Shown in pieces: positions 26,829 through 43,548 of a DNA stretch of 64,000 bases. The stretch spans positions 1 to 64,000 of the IMG/VR virus record IMGVR_UViG_3300006076_000003. One strand, written 5' to 3'. Made by a program: the position numbers and the translations under genes. A model generated the notes under the pieces. That model was not told the origin of the DNA and ran no database searches. It saw only the letters and a list, made by a program, of their open reading frames with translations. The stretch comes from a virus. How positions within the stretch are numbered: position 1 is the first letter of the stretch; the number at the start of each line of letters is the position of its first letter.

Positions 26829-27798
26829 CACAGAGGTAATAGAATTTGAAAAGTACTTTAACAAGGTACCTGATGAATTAATAACACCAGATTGGCTATA
26901 TAAAAACCTTATTGAGAAAAATTCATTAAACGTTATGTTTGGTGCAACAGGATCTATGAAAAGTTTTGTTATTTTAGATATGCTATTGCATATAACAAAT
27001 AATAAAGATTGGCAAAACTTTAAATTAAAAGAGCAAGATGTTGTTGCTCTATATGTTGCTGGGGAAGGACAGACTGGTCTAAACCTTAGAATAAAAGCAG
27101 CATGTAATAAACATGAATTAAATCATGACAATTTGTTAATAAGCAAAACACCTGTTGATTTAATGAATGAGGGACATATTAACAAATTAATAGCAGCAAT
27201 TAAGAGTATAGATAAACATGTTTTTATCATATTTGATACACTAAACAGAAACTTTAGTGGTGATGAAAATAGCAGCAAAGATATGGCTGTTGTATGGCAG
27301 AATGTAACAAGATTAACAAAAGTTAATGCTACTGTTATGATAATTCACCATACAGGACATGGTGTTTCAAATAGAGCAAGAGGTAGTTCATCTATAAGAG
27401 CAGCAATGGATGGTGAGTTTGGTGTAGAACTCAATAAGGAAACAAAAGTTATAACTGTTTCAAATACCAAAGCTAAAAACACTGAAGAAGCAGATGCTAT
27501 TACTTTAACATATGAAAAAGTTATATTAGGAAAAGATGAAGACGATGATGACATTACCTCATTAGCATTGTTACCTTATATTGATGAGGACAGCAATGAT
27601 ACAGAAGAAGTATTAATAAATACTGCTGAACTCATCAAAGATAAATTACCTATGAGTCATAAAGACATTAACAAATTGATTGCTGATGTTTTTAATAAGG
27701 CAGAGGAGACAGTTAGAAAAAGCATAAAACCAAAGGTCTATGCTTATCTAAAAGATAAATATAACATCCAGTCCGCTAAATCTGGCTGGGTGTTATGA
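26815..27798 (+). CDS. AAA_25 / RSF1010 RepA-like helicase
   Basis: GATGSMKSF, YVAGEG, IFDTLNR..GDENS, IHHTG, RARGSS motifs. Confidence 0.85.
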   Translation: MMKNNTEVIEFEKYFNKVPDELITPDWLYKNLIEKNSLNVMFGATGSMKSFVILDMLLHITNNKDWQNFKLKEQDVVALYVAGEGQTGLNLRIKAACNKHELNHDNLLISKTPVDLMNEGHINKLIAAIKSIDKHVFIIFDTLNRNFSGDENSSKDMAVVWQNVTRLTKVNATVMIIHHTGHGVSNRARGSSSIRAAMDGEFGVELNKETKVITVSNTKAKNTEEADAITLTYEKVILGKDEDDDDITSLALLPYIDEDSNDTEEVLINTAELIKDKLPMSHKDINKLIADVFNKAEETVRKSIKPKVYAYLKDKYNIQSAKSGWVL

Positions 27799-27837
27799 TA
27801 CCATGTTATCTCTGAGAAAGAGGTTAAACCTCTTCCT

Positions 27838-29925
27838 CTATGCTTGCATAAAGTTATCTCCTATAATTAATTTAGTCTCTTGTTTATCAGGTCGTAGACT
27901 TGCGACCTCTTCTGCTGTTAATTTGTCACGGCTCATAGATTTTAATGCCATTAACATTGCTTCCTGCTCCCAAGCATCCAGTAAATCTTGTTTTCCTACT
28001 CGAAGCAATCCTTCCTGAAGCATTCCACATGCCCCATCATTATCGTGTATAAATATTGCTGACCCACCAAGTTCAGCAACATAATCTATTTTAGCTCTAA
28101 CAGCTACAGCATCATCTGCATGTGTTGCATTTGCTAAAGCTCCACTCATTTTAACTTTAGATTCAACATCTTGTTTATCGCCTCTTCCTTTGATTACTGA
28201 GACTGCTGGCACATATTTACCATTGTTTAAGATAAATAGCAATGGCATATGTCTAACAATACTCATAGACTTTAGGTTGTCATAACCCAACTTTTCATTG
28301 AACGATCTTCCTTCCTCATCACTTGAGATGTAGAATACCTTAGATTGGTATCCTTCTAAATAAGCAATTGATCTGGCTGGAAAACCATCCCTTGTCATGA
28401 TGTTTAACTCTGAGTACTCATTGTTATAAAATGAGTTCCCTATCTTGTTATACAGGTGGAATAATTCACCTGTATCTCCATATACTTCTTTAACAATCTT
28501 GAGATATACCTCCTCTGTTAGATTTATTTCCTCACTATGTGCTTCTAAGAAGTACTGTTCAGCCTTCTTAACAGCAGATTTAGGTGATACCCCAGCAGTA
28601 ATTGATTGTGATACTGCTTTCTTGATATCATCCCTTGTTGCTGATAGATTTGTTATTTTATTAAATGCTTTAGTAAGCTCCTTGTGTGGATCCATAACTG
28701 ATTTGTAGTCAAGTAGATTACATATTCTTAAAGCTTTACGCTCTTTACTAAGTCCAGCAGCAAACCTTATTGCTCCTGAGTTGGTGTAATCTGTGAACAG
28801 GTATGTTGCATTTGGTGTGCCACTTAAGTAATCATAATATGCTTGTACTACTCGCTTATGATAAAGCTCCTCTAAATAGCCATTAGCCGATTTTAAAAAT
28901 TTGCTAATGTTTTTATCAACATCCTTTTCAAACTCTGCTATTGCATTGTTTGGGTTCAACCTTTTAAGAGTTGACATAATTACAAATACAATATATTTGT
29001 AATCTAACTCATTTAATACTCTAGGCTTAAAACTCTCCCACATATATTTACCTATCTTTGTTTGTGGGTTTAATAAAGGATTTGGTGATGTATAATAAAC
29101 CCTTCCCCTGTAATCATATGCTGTCTCTATAAACAAGGGAAAGTTTCCACTTTCTTGTTTATTTTTTAATTCTACCAATGCTTTAATATACCTTTTGTAA
29201 TTTTGTTTTAATTTGTCTAACCTATCTTTGATTAGCAATCTCCTTTCAAGATTGCTGTATTTTCTTGTTTTAGATAAAAATTTGCCTTCTTTAACAGCTA
29301 TATATTCTTTGCTGGTCAGCAAATATTTATACAGCTTTTTAATCTCTACATCATTTACAAGACGATGTTGCATCTTGTTAGCATTTGCTAAAGTCTTTTT
29401 AGCAGCACTATTAAGTTTACGTGCTGGCATACCTGCTTTACCTGCTACTTTAGTTTTAGGCTTTTGTGGTGAAAATGTTACACCACTAGTAGCATCTTTA
29501 AGAGCTACTTCAATACTAGGGTCCCCAATAAACTTTTCAATCTTTTGGTACTGCTTGTTACGACTTCTATACACTTCAACTCTTTTATTTGGACCTACTT
29601 TCATATAAGCATTTAGCACTGCTGCTGCAATGCTTAACTTTGCATGTTCCCTCCAGTGAGGGTTGAAATCTCCTAAGCCTCTTGAGTTTAGCCTATAAGA
29701 CAGTGCAGCAACTGCGTTATGCAGTTCAGTTTCTCTTAGATTTTCTAAGAAAGATAGGATATCTTTCTTATAGCCTCCTTTGAAAAAGATATCATAGGCA
29801 GCTACCATTGCTGCCCATTTTTCGTCTTTACCTTCTAAAGTCTTTAGAACTTTTAAATCTTCAAGAGATTTTTTGCTTTCTTTTAATTCAATATACACTT
29901 TTCTATAGATTGTTTCAGTTTTCAT
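27838..29925 (-). CDS. Single-subunit T7/N4-RNAPII-type RNA polymerase
   Basis: YDYRGRVY, motif A TDYTNSG, motif B RDDIKKAV, ANATHADDA, motif C FIHD. Confidence 0.85.
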   Translation of the reverse strand: MKTETIYRKVYIELKESKKSLEDLKVLKTLEGKDEKWAAMVAAYDIFFKGGYKKDILSFLENLRETELHNAVAALSYRLNSRGLGDFNPHWREHAKLSIAAAVLNAYMKVGPNKRVEVYRSRNKQYQKIEKFIGDPSIEVALKDATSGVTFSPQKPKTKVAGKAGMPARKLNSAAKKTLANANKMQHRLVNDVEIKKLYKYLLTSKEYIAVKEGKFLSKTRKYSNLERRLLIKDRLDKLKQNYKRYIKALVELKNKQESGNFPLFIETAYDYRGRVYYTSPNPLLNPQTKIGKYMWESFKPRVLNELDYKYIVFVIMSTLKRLNPNNAIAEFEKDVDKNISKFLKSANGYLEELYHKRVVQAYYDYLSGTPNATYLFTDYTNSGAIRFAAGLSKERKALRICNLLDYKSVMDPHKELTKAFNKITNLSATRDDIKKAVSQSITAGVSPKSAVKKAEQYFLEAHSEEINLTEEVYLKIVKEVYGDTGELFHLYNKIGNSFYNNEYSELNIMTRDGFPARSIAYLEGYQSKVFYISSDEEGRSFNEKLGYDNLKSMSIVRHMPLLFILNNGKYVPAVSVIKGRGDKQDVESKVKMSGALANATHADDAVAVRAKIDYVAELGGSAIFIHDNDGACGMLQEGLLRVGKQDLLDAWEQEAMLMALKSMSRDKLTAEEVASLRPDKQETKLIIGDNFMQA

Positions 29926-29959
29926 TTTGAACTCCTATAATTAATTTTTTTTTGTTCAA

Positions 29960-30073
29960 CGTACCTTTGTTTAAGCAGTTGGTCTGCTCTTGTTAACTAA
30001 CAACTAACCCACCATTAAGTACTCCATTGAGTACTTAAGGATGAGTGAACAGTTTATAGTCTTGTTCAGGACT
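29960..30073 (-). ncRNA. Structured leader of RNAP gene: pseudoknot copy 2, long hairpin, ACCAA-loop element
   Basis: AGTC-CTGAACAA-GACT-ATAAAC-TGTTCA; hairpin 30008-30045; AGCAG-ACCAA-CTGCT..GGTACG. Confidence 0.65.
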
Positions 30074-30089
30074 AAGGCAGATCTTAGAG

Positions 30090-30599
30090 CTATTCAATCC
30101 TAAAATCTACCATGGGAACTTCTAATCCCTTAGCAGCTAATGCTGCTAAGGTTAATATTCCTTCTTTGGCAATCCCCTTCCTTTCATATTCCCTTATTTC
30201 AAGTGTTGTCTCTCTATCAATTATTTGTTGTACAAATTCTCTATATAATAGAGAGACTATTAAGTATTTGGATATATCCTCCTGTATCCTACTATACTTT
30301 GATTCTACTTTAGTTTGTAGGACTATTTTATCTCTTTTAATCTCTAATAGGGAAATTGATATGTCTGCATACATGTCTTTATTATTAATTCCTGCTTTTG
30401 TGATTCTTTCCTCAGGAGCCTCTGACTCCCAACCAAATACTCTACGTTCTCCTTTTACCCATCCTTTACTTATAAGCCAATACTTAAATGTATGGTTATT
30501 CAAAACTTCAGACATTTCTGCGTACTCTTTGTATGCTTCTCTATTTGCAAGGCCACCTAATTTTTTGTGTCCGTAAAATTCAATTGTTAAAGTTTTCAT
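30090..30599 (-). CDS. Hypothetical early protein
   Basis: AAGGAG RBS, 169 aa. Confidence 0.65.
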   Translation of the reverse strand: MKTLTIEFYGHKKLGGLANREAYKEYAEMSEVLNNHTFKYWLISKGWVKGERRVFGWESEAPEERITKAGINNKDMYADISISLLEIKRDKIVLQTKVESKYSRIQEDISKYLIVSLLYREFVQQIIDRETTLEIREYERKGIAKEGILTLAALAAKGLEVPMVDFRIE

Positions 30600-30629
30600 A
30601 ATGTTCTCCTTAAATTAATTTATTATGAG

Positions 30630-30748
30630 CGTACCTTTTTAAAAGAGTTGGTCTCTTTTCTATTGAACAATTAAACTAACTACCCACCATTAAACATTCC
30701 TAAGAATGTTTAAAGATAGGTAAGCAGTTTTACAACATGCTTAGGTTG
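30630..30748 (-). ncRNA. Structured leader: pseudoknot copy 3, long hairpin, ACCAA-loop element
   Basis: CAAC-CTAAGCAT-GTTG-TAAAAC-TGCTTA; hairpin 30683-30720; AAAAGAG-ACCAA-CTCTTTT..GGTACG. Confidence 0.65.
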
Positions 30749-30754
30749 TTGTTT

Positions 30755-31096
30755 TTATTTTTGTTTTTCAATCTCCTTTTTTAATTTTGCTAGTTTAAGC
30801 TCTCTTCTGAGAGCTTCCTCTTCCTCACGAGCTGTCTTCTCTTCTTCGCTCTCCTCTAACAGAGTAGAGAACCACTCTGCTGAGTTTTTAATATGTGTTG
30901 GTGTATTACCAACAAACTCAATTGTTCTATAAGTAGCCTCTGCAGTCAATGCTGCAGTTTTAGAAATTGACGCAGTAGAGTAAACTACCGCATCGTTTAA
31001 GTCAGCTAAAGGAGTTAATCCTTTATCTGCACAATTAGACTCTACTGAGTCAACTAAATCTTCAATAAACCATTTTGCTTTTGTGAATACTTTCAT
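30755..31096 (-). CDS. First early protein (hypothetical)
   Basis: AAGGAG RBS before ATG 31096 (MKVFTKAKWF). Confidence 0.65.
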   Translation of the reverse strand: MKVFTKAKWFIEDLVDSVESNCADKGLTPLADLNDAVVYSTASISKTAALTAEATYRTIEFVGNTPTHIKNSAEWFSTLLEESEEEKTAREEEEALRRELKLAKLKKEIEKQK

Positions 31097-31118
31097 TGTA
31101 TTCTCCTTTAAATAAATT

Positions 31119-31144
31119 AGCAGTTTTACTACTTGCTTAGGTAA
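31119..31144 (-). ncRNA. Pseudoknot motif copy 4
   Basis: TTAC-CTAAGCAA-GTAG-TAAAAC-TGCT. Confidence 0.6.
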
Positions 31145-31149
31145 AATTA

Positions 31150-31420
31150 GGTACTTCAACCACCATAGGGGGGGGGTATCCCCACTTGATTGGCGTTGGA
31201 TGCACCTAACTACACACCTCACTAAAAAGAAAGAAAAAACACCTATCACCAAACCTAAAAACTGCACACTGCAAACAATTTAACATCACATGCTAAAAAA
31301 TTTTTATTTTTATTACTACTACTATTATTATTAAGTTATAAAAAGAAATATATAAGTATTTAAAGAAAAGCCCCAGCGGCTCAGCTAAAAGGACGGGTGG
31401 GGTGTTAGGCAATTTTGTTA
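31150..31420. other. Probable genome-end / terminal repeat region between divergent arms
   Basis: Strand switch, G-run followed by TATCCC at about 31168-31182, strong strand-compositional skew; lies upstream of the terminase genes as in N4. Confidence 0.45.
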
Positions 31421-31426
31421 TTGTTA

Positions 31427-31435
31427 TGCTATAAT
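31427..31435 (+). promoter_or_regulatory. Extended -10 promoter (TGnTATAAT)
   Basis: TGCTATAAT upstream of late operon. Confidence 0.55.
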
Positions 31436-31560
31436 CTACCAAAACTTAAAAATAGGCTTAAAAGTTATGTTATATTATATAGACTTTTTTTGTTTGCACT
31501 GCAATTCAACAAACAAATGCATACTAAAAGACAACATTATAAAATGTCCTTTATGCAACA

Positions 31561-32466
31561 ATGTTATATATGAAAAAGGAAAAAACAATGGCAGAAAAAA
31601 AGAAGAAAAAAGAACCCCAATATGGGACGCCAGCAAGTAGGCGTGAGAAATATGAAAACAGAATTAAAGAACAAGTTGCTTTATATAAGCCACAGATTAG
31701 TCAATTAGGTAAAGTAGCATTATCAGATAAACCTGTTGATGTTGAAGAATTACATAAAAGGTTCCCTCGTTATAAGAAGTTAATCAACCCTGAACATTCA
31801 CGTTTGCTAAATGAGTTTATGAAAGAAAAAGATTTCAATATACAAATGTTTATGGATGAACTTGTTTATTACCAAGATGTTATGGGAGAAACTAAAACAA
31901 GTATGAAGAACTATATACTTGCTGTAAGATATGTTAGCTTTCTCCCTGTTTATAAATACAATAAGACACAAACATTTAAACGTGTGTTTCCAAATAATCC
32001 TAATGTACGCAAGTGTGAAGCTTGGCTTGCTGAAGATGGTAATAAAAGAGAAGATTGTATAGATTGTAAATTTGTTTCTGCAGAGGCATCAAAATATTCT
32101 AATTCACCACTTGTACAAAAATTAATTGCTTTAAGTATGATGCCACTTGACTATATGTTAATGGGTGATCGTATTAAAATGTTAAATGTCCTAACTAAAG
32201 AAGCAATGACTGCTAAAACAAGTAGAGATAGAATTGCTGCTGCTGATAAATTCTTAACACATACAAAAACTATTGAAACAAATAAAATTACTATGGAAGA
32301 TAAAACAGGTAAAGAAATACAAAACAGTTTGCAGTCTATATTAGAAGAGAAACTTGCTGAATCTGTTAAGATGCAAAAACAAATGTTAGCTCAAGGTATG
32401 GGTATTGATGAAGTACAGAAGTTAGGGATAGAAATAACAGATGCTGAGGTAATAGAAGATGAGTGA
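31561..32466 (+). CDS. Probable terminase small subunit (N4 gp69 position)
   Basis: Directly upstream of terL; true start probably 31588. Confidence 0.55.
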   Translation: MLYMKKEKTMAEKKKKKEPQYGTPASRREKYENRIKEQVALYKPQISQLGKVALSDKPVDVEELHKRFPRYKKLINPEHSRLLNEFMKEKDFNIQMFMDELVYYQDVMGETKTSMKNYILAVRYVSFLPVYKYNKTQTFKRVFPNNPNVRKCEAWLAEDGNKREDCIDCKFVSAEASKYSNSPLVQKLIALSMMPLDYMLMGDRIKMLNVLTKEAMTAKTSRDRIAAADKFLTHTKTIETNKITMEDKTGKEIQNSLQSILEEKLAESVKMQKQMLAQGMGIDEVQKLGIEITDAEVIEDE

Positions 32467-34177
32467 ATATGAATATGTGCCTACACCATTTGATGCACAC
32501 TTAGCTTTAGAAACAATTGATTATTCATTCCCGAATTATACACCAAGTGATGATGCTTTAGAATTTTTTAATTTAATGCGATTAGTAGAAGGTAAAGACT
32601 TTGAATACAATACACCTTTATTCCACTACTTTATAATTGATGCTATTTTTGGTCATGTCAAAGCAGAGAACTTCCCATATTCTGATGAAGTTAAAAAAAC
32701 AATACACCTCAATCAACGCCGTATAGCAATTGTTGCTACACGGGGGGGAGCTAAGAGTTCTGTTGTTACAAAGTTCTTACCTCTATATCTTGCTATTAAA
32801 GGTAGAATGCCTAAGAATAAACAAAAGATAAGATTTGTTATTGGTATTGCTGCTTCTGCAGAAGGTGGTGCAAGAGTTATTAGTAAAGCATTAGGTGCTA
32901 TGATTAATGAGTCTGAGTTTTGTCAAGAGTACTTTGAATCAATTCGTATTACAGAGTCAGAAGTAGAGCTTGTTAGAAAAGGTAAAGGTAGTGCTAAAAA
33001 TAGAACATTCCTCATGAGAAACATGGGATGGGCTGGAGGAATACGTGGTATCAGGGATTCCTATGGTGAAAGACCTGATATGGCATTACTAGATGACATC
33101 ATTCCCAACTCTGCTGCTGCTCATTCTGAAACACAGATGGATCAACTAAATACTATCGTACAATCTGATATTTTAAATGCTTTAATTGGTGGTAACAAAG
33201 GTTATGTTATATCTGTTGCTACACCATTCACAGAAAATGATGTTGTCTGGAAAACATTAACAAGTGGTGTTTATACTCCTTTGATATTCCCCATTTGTGA
33301 AAAGATTGATGAACATATGACACCTGATGAAATTGTTAGTATATGGCCTGCTATGCACCCCCCTCAAGCAATTTATGAGCAATACATTGCTGCTAAAATG
33401 AGTGGTAACTTACAATCATTTATGCAAGAACGTATGTTACGTATCACAAGTGAAGAAGATAGATTAATACCAGAACATATGCTATCTTGGTATGACAATA
33501 GAAATTTAATACTAAAAAATATACACAATTTTACTGTTATCATTACAACAGACTTTACTGCAGGTAATACTAAAAAAGGTGATTATTCAGGTATTGCTGT
33601 TTGGGCTATAAATGTTAATGATGATAAATTTTTAGTAGATTTGTTTTTACAAAAATGTACTATACAAGAACAATATGATGCTTTGTTTAATTTTGTACAA
33701 AAGTGGGGTACTGCTGGTACTACATTAGAAGTTGGTGTTGAGATAGATGGGCAACAACAATTAAACATTAATAGACTTGAAGCAATGATGATAGAGCGTA
33801 ATGTATGGTTTAGATTTGCAAGACAAAAAGGTAAACCTGCTTCACAAACTGGTATTAGAACAAGTGGTATGAAAAATAAGTTAGAAAGATTAAGAGCAAC
33901 TATACCAGATTTTGAAATGCATAGGATAAAGTTCCCAAGAGAATTACAAGATACAGCAGAAATGAAAGAATTATTGAGTGAAATTCGTAAAACAAATACA
34001 TCAATTATAACAAGTGTACATGATGATGGTTTAGATCTAATATCACAATTAATGTTAATTGATTATCCTAAAGCAAGTACTTCTATAAGTAGTCCTGATA
34101 CAATAGAAGGTTGGGACATTGACTCACTATCAAATGAAAATGATGAGGAGTATAGTAGAAGTTCAGTAATATTTTGA
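32459..34177 (+). CDS. terL: Terminase large subunit
   Basis: ATRGGAKSS Walker A, GIRG..RPD..LLDD Walker B, TTDFT..DYS and HDDGLD nuclease motifs. Confidence 0.92.
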   Translation: MSEYEYVPTPFDAHLALETIDYSFPNYTPSDDALEFFNLMRLVEGKDFEYNTPLFHYFIIDAIFGHVKAENFPYSDEVKKTIHLNQRRIAIVATRGGAKSSVVTKFLPLYLAIKGRMPKNKQKIRFVIGIAASAEGGARVISKALGAMINESEFCQEYFESIRITESEVELVRKGKGSAKNRTFLMRNMGWAGGIRGIRDSYGERPDMALLDDIIPNSAAAHSETQMDQLNTIVQSDILNALIGGNKGYVISVATPFTENDVVWKTLTSGVYTPLIFPICEKIDEHMTPDEIVSIWPAMHPPQAIYEQYIAAKMSGNLQSFMQERMLRITSEEDRLIPEHMLSWYDNRNLILKNIHNFTVIITTDFTAGNTKKGDYSGIAVWAINVNDDKFLVDLFLQKCTIQEQYDALFNFVQKWGTAGTTLEVGVEIDGQQQLNINRLEAMMIERNVWFRFARQKGKPASQTGIRTSGMKNKLERLRATIPDFEMHRIKFPRELQDTAEMKELLSEIRKTNTSIITSVHDDGLDLISQLMLIDYPKASTSISSPDTIEGWDIDSLSNENDEEYSRSSVIF

Positions 34178-43310: not shown

Positions 43311-43323
43311 AAAGGAAAATATA

Positions 43324-43548
43324 ATGACAAAAGAACAACTTTTAAATAAAGAACGGTTAGAAGTTAATGAAAAACTTGAAAATCTAACCAAAAAATTGGA
43401 TTTTACAGATGCTAAAATCACTGAATTGATAAATATTTTTCGCGAAGCTAAGATTAAAAGACTTTTAACTTGCCCAGAAAAAGTTGAAGATTTAGAGCAA
43501 CGTGTTAAAGCTTTGGAAGAAAGATTATTGAATGGAACAAACACTTAG
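43324..43548 (+). CDS. Coiled-coil hypothetical protein
   Basis: AAGGA RBS before MTKEQL. Confidence 0.5.
   Translation: MTKEQLLNKERLEVNEKLENLTKKLDFTDAKITELINIFREAKIKRLLTCPEKVEDLEQRVKALEERLLNGTNT

Follow-up and report, generated by a model that had tools for sequence, protein, structure and literature searches.

A duplicated leader cassette before the RNA polymerase gene of an IMG/VR phage looks most like a terminator and hairpin-promoter unit of the N4 kind

The phage considered here is represented by an 86,601-bp IMG/VR virus record (IMGVR_UViG_3300006076_000003; completeness estimate 97%), and its first 64 kb, positions 1 to 64,000, make up the stretch of DNA that was analysed, hereafter the window. 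The minus strand carries a duplicated leader cassette, one copy of which lies directly before the gene of a 695-amino-acid (aa) phage RNA polymerase (RNAP) and the other before the preceding gene, as an initial annotation made from the sequence alone had already placed them. Each copy combines a small hairpin (module a), a long imperfect hairpin (module b) and a short hairpin with an ACCAA loop that is followed by GGUACG (module c). Hairpin b belongs to the minus-sense RNA. By analogy with phage N4, the cassettes look most like units of a terminator and a hairpin promoter, and not like the new RNA pseudoknot that the initial annotation had proposed. The reading that we favour, tentatively and with a confidence a little below even, is that the upstream RNA would end or be processed at b and that c is a variant of the N4-type hairpin promoter, with a loop of 5 nucleotides (nt), from which RNA would start at the GG.

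Results

Architecture of the cassette

The two spacers, 30754-30600 and 30089-29926, align at a mean column identity of 77% and hold the three modules in the same order. All strings quoted in the initial annotation were located on the minus strand, on which the features described below also lie. Module a2 (30721-30745), directly 3' of the stop codon of a 113-aa gene, has a 6-bp stem and an 11-nt loop ending in UAAAAC, while a3 (30046-30070) is a small hairpin with the covarying stem UGAACA/UGUUCA and a loop ending in UAAAC. In module b2 (30682-30721) a U/U mismatch separates 7 bp from a further 10 bp, the loop is UUAG and the lower stem includes two G.U pairs; b3 (30007-30046) is likewise built of 7 and 10 bp, here around a C/U mismatch, with AAUG as its loop and again two G.U pairs. 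The third module starts in c2 (30630-30659) with a hairpin of 7 bp and an ACCAA loop (30659-30641), followed by an AAAAA linker and GGTACG (30635-30630), and in c3 (29960-29988) with a 5-bp hairpin and the same loop (29988-29974), followed by the linker UAAACAAA and GGTACG (29965-29960), the A-rich linker measuring 5 or 8 nt. Downstream of GGUACG come an AU-rich tract of 24-33 nt, a GGAG ribosome-binding site and the ATG codons at 30599 and 29925. The c hairpins end 29 nt (c2) and 37 nt (c3) upstream of the ribosome-binding site, so that direct occlusion of this site is unlikely.

The duplication reported in the initial annotation is real and modular: the pair of hairpin b and element c occurs only twice in the 86.6-kb genome. 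The pattern ACCAA-N(9-18)-GGTACG is found twice in the window against 0.01 expected, a count reached in none of 100 shuffles, and the whole record holds these two on its reverse strand, none on its forward strand and none in the control. GGTACG by itself is not rare (4 found, 2.74 expected).

The invariant 3' arm of b (30693-30679 and 30018-30007) reads AUG GUG GGU with a stop after 0-1 more codons and with GGAG or AGGA 6-7 nt before it, in the arm on the loop side. The hairpin may hide a mini-ORF (open reading frame) of 3-4 codons here, or this may be chance. Two other candidates for the cassette were dropped, namely a preQ1-like mini-pseudoknot, for which Rfam gave no hit and the loop has too few nucleotides, and a sigma-70 promoter (none within the cassette on the coding, minus strand).

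Conserved pairing in hairpins b and c

Each copy of hairpin b forms every one of the 17 pairs (34 of 34 cells). Three pairs are changed on both sides and two on one side only (C-G to U.G), and the two G.U pairs of each copy become A.C mismatches on the opposite strand. Against shuffles the minus-sense RNA folds with z scores of -4.41 and -3.73, while the plus sense reaches -2.13 and -2.06. Because of its G.U pairs and its stronger minus-sense fold, b is a structure of the minus-sense RNA, and the expectation that G-U pairs would favour this strand holds for this module. Minimum-energy folds lengthen b, to 25 bp in copy 2 and to 27 bp in copy 3, since UAGUU downstream of GGUGGGU, which reads UAGUUU behind b2, then has as its partner AAACUG from the 3' half of module a; module a and extended b are therefore partly exclusive structures.

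For c a third sequence is provided by L006, a 3.1-kb JGI contig with a polymerase 39% identical to the 695-aa protein and the one useful locus from the scans described below. About 40 nt before the ribosome-binding site its leader reads AGAG-ACCAG-CUCU-AUAACA-GGACG, preceded by a long composite hairpin, and so keeps the hairpin, the loop and the closing pairs of c; folding of the leader as a whole is not better than that of shuffles (z -1.20). A 10-codon ORF with a strong AAGGAGG ribosome-binding site (L006 165-210) lies there between a UUCG-loop hairpin and the long hairpin. Across c2, c3 and L006 the inner five pairs (11-25 to 15-21) are formed in 14 of 15 cells, both partners are changed in pairs 12-24 and 13-23, and columns 14-22 show a single variation, A/G at one position of the loop. 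All 16 pairs in the three stems (7, 5 and 4 bp) are Watson-Crick, without any G.U, and both DNA strands can consequently fold at c.

The compensatory changes among c2, c3 and L006 and between b2 and b3 point to selection for pairing and not just for sequence identity, in keeping with the earlier remark that the stems differ but go on pairing, which proves right for both modules. Shuffle controls are weak with two or three sequences (52 of 500 reach the observed score for c and 56 of 500 for b), and with slid partners the share of paired cells falls from 83-100% to 29-47%.

Two phage polymerases and kinship with N4

The polymerase gene behind c3 (29925-27838, with an AGGAG ribosome-binding site at 29936-29932) encodes a single-chain enzyme of the N4 RNAPII and T7 kind. 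Its product matches PHROG 2051, 'RNA polymerase' (E 1.4e-7), and has four relatives in the protein collection that are 40-54% identical. A profile of these five proteins matches N4 RNAPII chain 6dt7_B (E 0.0017) and T7 RNAP (E ~0.004-0.006), and tblastn finds the 'RNA polymerase' of Alteromonas phage PT11-V19 (V19; E 2e-11). A much larger ORF of 2388 aa (66632-73798 of the record; L009 3633-10799) matches the large 'RNA polymerase' of V19 over 73% of the query (tblastn, E 5e-99), with a weaker tblastn match of its C-terminal part to virion RNAPs of N4-like Vibrio phages. This protein has no PHROG hit, two Pfam hits that are both sub-threshold and one non-significant PDB sequence hit (E 0.21); it is recognisable as a virion-RNAP homologue through its tblastn match to V19 and phage R22Y, and is ~1100 aa shorter than the enzyme of N4 (3500 aa). 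V19 and R22Y have been placed in the Schitoviridae, and the available portion of the source describes a virion RNAP and a second RNAP (PMC11705849). On the strength of the tblastn matches and this placement the phage is, as judged from its predicted proteins, a deep-branching N4-like virus with a virion-RNAP homologue and a fused, single-chain RNAPII.

The N4 sequence (NC_008720) was read directly for comparison. N4 encodes gp1 of 108 aa and gp2 of 161 aa, with gp15/gp16 (RNAPII) further on. Its gp1-gp2 spacer contains a G+C-rich hairpin followed by UUUU, a second hairpin, and a hairpin with 7 bp and a TCC loop, behind which TTGG stands; the first of these, which is unannotated and includes one G.U pair, looks like a terminator. 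The TCC-loop hairpin, centred on GCTCCGC, recurs with a different stem ~50 nt before gp15, and a version with a TTC loop lies before gp1, the count from loop centre to first G being 11 nt in all three promoters. In coliphage N4 the injected virion RNA polymerase reads these early promoters, P1-P3, whose stems have 5-7 bp. They are described in the accessible part of the source as conserved from -17 to +1, with a heptamer at -11 that is flanked by inverted repeats, and their non-conserved stem bases as required for pairing only (PMC4496689). The template-strand hairpins of c2 and c3 are predicted at -4.2 and -4.8 kcal/mol, against -3.7 to -6.7 for N4 P1-P3, and the two c elements precede the second and third operon genes of a phage that has a virion-RNAP homologue.

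The early operon and its head

The phage DNA has ~30% G+C and its probable source run is a hydrothermal vent metagenome. Minus-strand genes run leftward from ~31.27 kb and comprise the early and replication genes (DNA polymerase, primase, helicase), while plus-strand genes run rightward from 31.56 kb (terminase, portal, major head protein). Three genes open the minus-strand arm, for proteins of 113, 169 and 695 aa in this order. The first (31096-30755) has module a1 (31141-31118) upstream and neither b nor c, and its product was assigned to no family. The second (30599-30090; AAGGAG ribosome-binding site at 30611-30606) encodes a protein of the size class of N4 gp2 to which no similarity was detected; it has no Pfam or PHROG family and no relative in the word-indexed search, and the full search gave three weak relatives only.

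The head of the operon (31206-31168) has a small hairpin (GGUG..CGCC), after which come GAUA and nine consecutive C. This phage, V19, R22Y and the contigs L007 and L008 all have the run TACCCCCC unchanged and behind a small hairpin; the sites concerned are 31168-31206 on the minus strand of the window, L146 2036, L147 ~28-36, L007/L008 1812 and L148 31-40. A run of nine C also stands at nt 32-40 of the N4 genome, and the R22Y record ends ~30 nt before its own run. Perhaps TACCCCCC indicates the first start signal, or else where the genome physically ends. Were the genome cut within the divergent spacer 31270-31560, early genes would read inward from one end and structural genes from the other. 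Early and structural genes that read inward from opposite ends are the layout of N4. Under that cut, c2 and c3 would lie ~0.5 and 1.2 kb from the first-entering end. The distance from the C-run to c2 (~520 nt) nearly equals that from the C-run to P2 in N4.

In V19, R22Y and L007 the small hairpin at the head of the operon has a loop free of ACC, and (G)GUAC and a run of C come 7-9 nt behind it. Because GTAC-type motifs thus follow ACC-free hairpins in relatives, conservation of GGUAC is independent of the loop.

Leaders of relatives, a second genome and database searches

Module a is an older and wider element than b or c. It has four copies in the genome (31141-31118, 30745-30721, 30070-30046 and 25119-25097), whose loops end in UWWAAAC. 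In V19 and R22Y a hairpin with the loop AUUUUAAAC overlaps an early gene's ribosome-binding site (L146 ~2570-2595), and the 9-mer AUUUUAAAC also lies upstream of the polymerase ribosome-binding site in L006 (~322-337). The early leaders of V19 and R22Y have repeated cassettes of their own (L146 2476-2605 and 2834-2908; L147 474-602, 830-925 and 1207-1282), in which a G+C-rich UUUCCCC/GGGGAAA hairpin with one compensatory C-G to G-C change is followed by UGUCAGAG, while a second repeated block has the AUUUUAAAC hairpin at its end. Leaders of this repeated, structured kind would seem typical of the lineage.

Contigs of the source run show no variants within the phage. The contigs of the phage itself in this run (depth 14-18) break at c3, and three short contigs of depth 107-128 share 29960-29994 exactly, together with three of the next four bases, and then diverge; their flanks, as far as they were read (30 nt per side), are absent from this genome. 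Because these high-depth contigs share the block and diverge beyond it, a second genome, ~7-fold more abundant, carries these 35 nt as well. The block in common stops precisely with GGTACG, downstream of which the second genome likewise has a ribosome-binding site and ATG.

Further copies were sought in several collections. A covariance-model search of the kind that the initial annotation had suggested (model from c2, c3 and L006; 162,635 bases) returned no further real copy, its 26.9-bit hit at 43320-43360 lying within a coding ORF. The exact 23-mer of c3 has no hit in IMG/VR, blastn of 27800-31300 gave no match among 50,697 phage records, and Rfam, scanned with 27000-33000 at E values of 10 or lower, yielded eight hits, all far under the gathering scores. 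Scanning IMG/VR with the single polymerase protein gave 13 pattern hits, none confirmed; the polymerase profile found three distant loci (24-30% identity) from which the motif is absent, and in the genome contig collection 121 pattern hits, none confirmed. Among the 121 matches listed from an IMG/VR scan with the motif, three have at least four flanking pairs and none lies in an AU-rich leader before a ribosome-binding site, and we judged these matches to be chance. The 11 motif hits in the genome contig collection, none flanked by a stem, were likewise judged chance; there is therefore no sign in that collection that c was copied from a host genome. Four terminase-related loci (55-71% identity) are not syntenic and lack the motif, and a scan for a hairpin followed by GTAC found a hairpin at 35 of 147 sites, among which only c2 and c3 stood out. 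Our literature searches found no description of the element, which is not proof that it is unpublished.

Discussion

The reading that we favour can be set out as a scheme of stop and restart, each functional step of which we infer. Placed where the upstream cistron ends, hairpin b would work in the minus-sense RNA, be it as a terminator for the phage polymerase or as an RNase III-type site, where a cut would leave a protective 3' hairpin. Element c would act in the DNA, where the features read by a phage RNA polymerase would be the AG/CU pairs next to the loop and the conserved loop itself, TTGGT on the template strand with G at its centre, while the distal stem would need only to pair. RNA would start at the GG of GGTACG, giving unstructured, AU-rich 5' untranslated regions of ~35-40 nt. 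The reader of c would most likely be the injected virion enzyme, for which the 2388-aa protein is the predicted homologue, or otherwise the 695-aa enzyme, and c2 and c3 would drive the 169-aa gene and the polymerase gene as N4 P2 and P3 drive gp2 and RNAPII.

A number of observations weigh against this scheme. The comparative set for c amounts to three sequences and one identical block of 35 nt. L007 and L008, with a polymerase 31% identical, have no c-type element and an unstructured polymerase leader (z 0.15). The cultured phages V19 and R22Y carry two hairpins before the polymerase gene, the second of which has two pairs changed on both sides and a conserved 15-mer downstream and is a different hairpin, without an ACCAA loop. 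The template hairpin of L006 is weak (-1.6 kcal/mol), and the distance from loop centre to GG is inconstant, being 13 nt in L006, 15 in c2 (GG at 15-16) and 16 in c3. The loop of c has, for all the purine (G) at its centre on the template strand, five nucleotides and not three, and the stems are A+T-rich; the first early gene has no c element upstream. As for b as a terminator, a scan of 29700-31700 with the terminator consensus found nine sites, b2 and b3 not among them, and the tails of b are U-rich but interrupted, with no clean U run, although phage-polymerase rules may differ.

The alternative that has to be taken most seriously, if on balance an unlikely one, keeps the whole cassette in the RNA. 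The three early genes would form one transcript in which b is an intercistronic RNase III site, as in T7 early mRNA, and c the binding site of a phage protein, whether as a translational or stability operator or as a nut/boxB-like antitermination site acting on the next b hairpin. In its favour, hairpin b carries G.U pairs and C-G to U.G changes and folds well only in the minus sense, and its 25-27 bp with single mismatches agree with RNase III substrates as described in the available text of PMC1540722. The single candidate start signal at the operon head, the TACCCCCC motif, would suit one polycistronic RNA, and a conserved loop, a linear box and a covarying stem would suit an RNA-protein site. 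In phage lambda the boxB element combines a pentaloop with a stem of 5 bp, and each genome holds two copies. Against this alternative, c ends too far from the ribosome-binding site for ready occlusion, shows no G.U among its stem pairs and has no candidate binding protein, the 169-aa and 113-aa proteins being without family; the Rfam hits are all far below their gathering scores. A more specific form, in which c is a new RNA operator (a pentaloop hairpin with GGUACG, in the 5' untranslated regions of the polymerase gene and its presumed cofactor gene, that binds one of these early proteins or folds into a minimal pseudoknot) that would feed back on the dose of the transcription machinery while b uncouples the cistrons, we regard as more doubtful still.

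The proposal of the initial annotation, an RNase III-type site between protective pseudoknots, stands in so far as the length of b suffices for such a substrate; the ACCAA-loop pseudoknot is unsupported. An H-type pseudoknot of ACC with GGU, joined to the small upstream pseudoknot in guarding the RNA around an RNase III cut, would find its complementarity in both copies of the window and in the block of the second genome, and an A-rich linker as in many third loops of pseudoknots. The helix has three pairs, however, none of which is changed on both sides, and in L006, the only diverged homologue, GGACG loses the A-U pair, which leaves 7 of 9 cells paired. The conserved GGUACG box exceeds what the pairing needs and GTAC motifs follow ACC-free hairpins in relatives, while the geometry would by general rules be strained, with no nucleotide between the 5' stem strand and ACC and two A's before the 3' strand. 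We consider this the least probable explanation, and hardly more credence goes to one in which the cassette is mainly a recombination module, a short intergenic repeat serving related phages for gene exchange as PeSLs have been proposed to do in the T4-like group, or else the target of a DNA-binding regulator, its hairpins playing no part in the synthesis or processing of RNA. The 35 nt of c3 shared with a genome of ~7-fold greater depth (107-128 against 14-18), whose flanks are absent here, would suit such an exchange, as would the service of composite PeSL motifs as exchange points in the part of PMC4122927 available; but the compensatory changes show selection for pairing, and a role in exchange is compatible with a regulatory one, PeSLs being both.

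Described hairpin promoters are, to our knowledge, confined to N4 and near relatives, LUZ7 among them, and all have loops of 3-4 nt. If c is indeed read by the divergent 2388-aa virion polymerase, its 5-nt loop and longer spacer would widen the grammar of DNA-hairpin recognition and provide a testable promoter for a deep Schitoviridae-like lineage with a single-chain second polymerase; should it work as RNA instead, c would count as a new regulatory RNA. In both cases in vitro tests could be applied directly to this short and defined element. It is plausible that the cassette is a variant of a known arrangement, with few sequences behind it.

Several known systems invite comparison. As in the early RNase III sites of T7, of which R1.1 is one, b is intercistronic and forms an imperfect duplex of about two turns with a single mismatch, and it precedes a phage polymerase gene; in contrast to these likenesses, no sequence similarity to the T7 sites was seen. 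T7 carries its RNase III sites between early genes. Substrates of the enzyme have, in the text available, 'two helical turns' and, often, internal loops that confine cleavage to one strand, and a cut of this kind would leave a 3' hairpin with a protective effect (PMC1540722). The rules on proximal and distal boxes and on antideterminant pairs are defined for the E. coli enzyme. The PeSLs of T4-like phages are described in the accessible text as composite terminator and promoter motifs that are points of exchange (PMC4122927). They share with the cassettes the form of short, repeated units of stem-loop and promoter between early genes that recur across genomes whose flanks are unrelated (PMC4122927, PMC2839356, as far as these are available) but use host sigma-70 early promoters, of which the cassettes have none on the coding strand.

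Closer to the phage is LUZ7, an N4-like Pseudomonas phage whose promoters were mapped by ONT-cappable-seq. In the available part of that study its early transcripts preferentially start with G, 13-14 nt downstream of the centre of hairpins whose loop has 3 nt and whose stem has 4 bp or more; the polymerase cofactor Drc is expressed from the strongest of the early promoters; and the middle promoters have hairpins ~15 nt upstream of a G start (PMC9163698). Module c agrees with these in its stem of at least 4 bp, has its GG at 13-16 nt from the loop centre, and differs from them in that their loops have 3-4 nt and their middle hairpins are G+C-rich. The LUZ7 middle promoters are also the model for the 695-aa enzyme as the alternative reader of c. 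In N4 itself the promoter loop has 3 nt, not 5, and the GG stands at 11 nt, not 13-16; the stems are A+T-rich here, RNAPII has two subunits in N4 and one 695-aa chain here, and here the first gene lacks a c-type hairpin. In both phages, nevertheless, an invariant loop with its loop-proximal pairs tops a distal stem that varies but stays paired, with a GG a short way downstream; one copy stands between early genes of ~110 and ~165 aa and another before the second polymerase gene; and both have a hairpin preceding the promoter in the spacer and encode a giant virion-type polymerase together with an enzyme of the RNAPII type.

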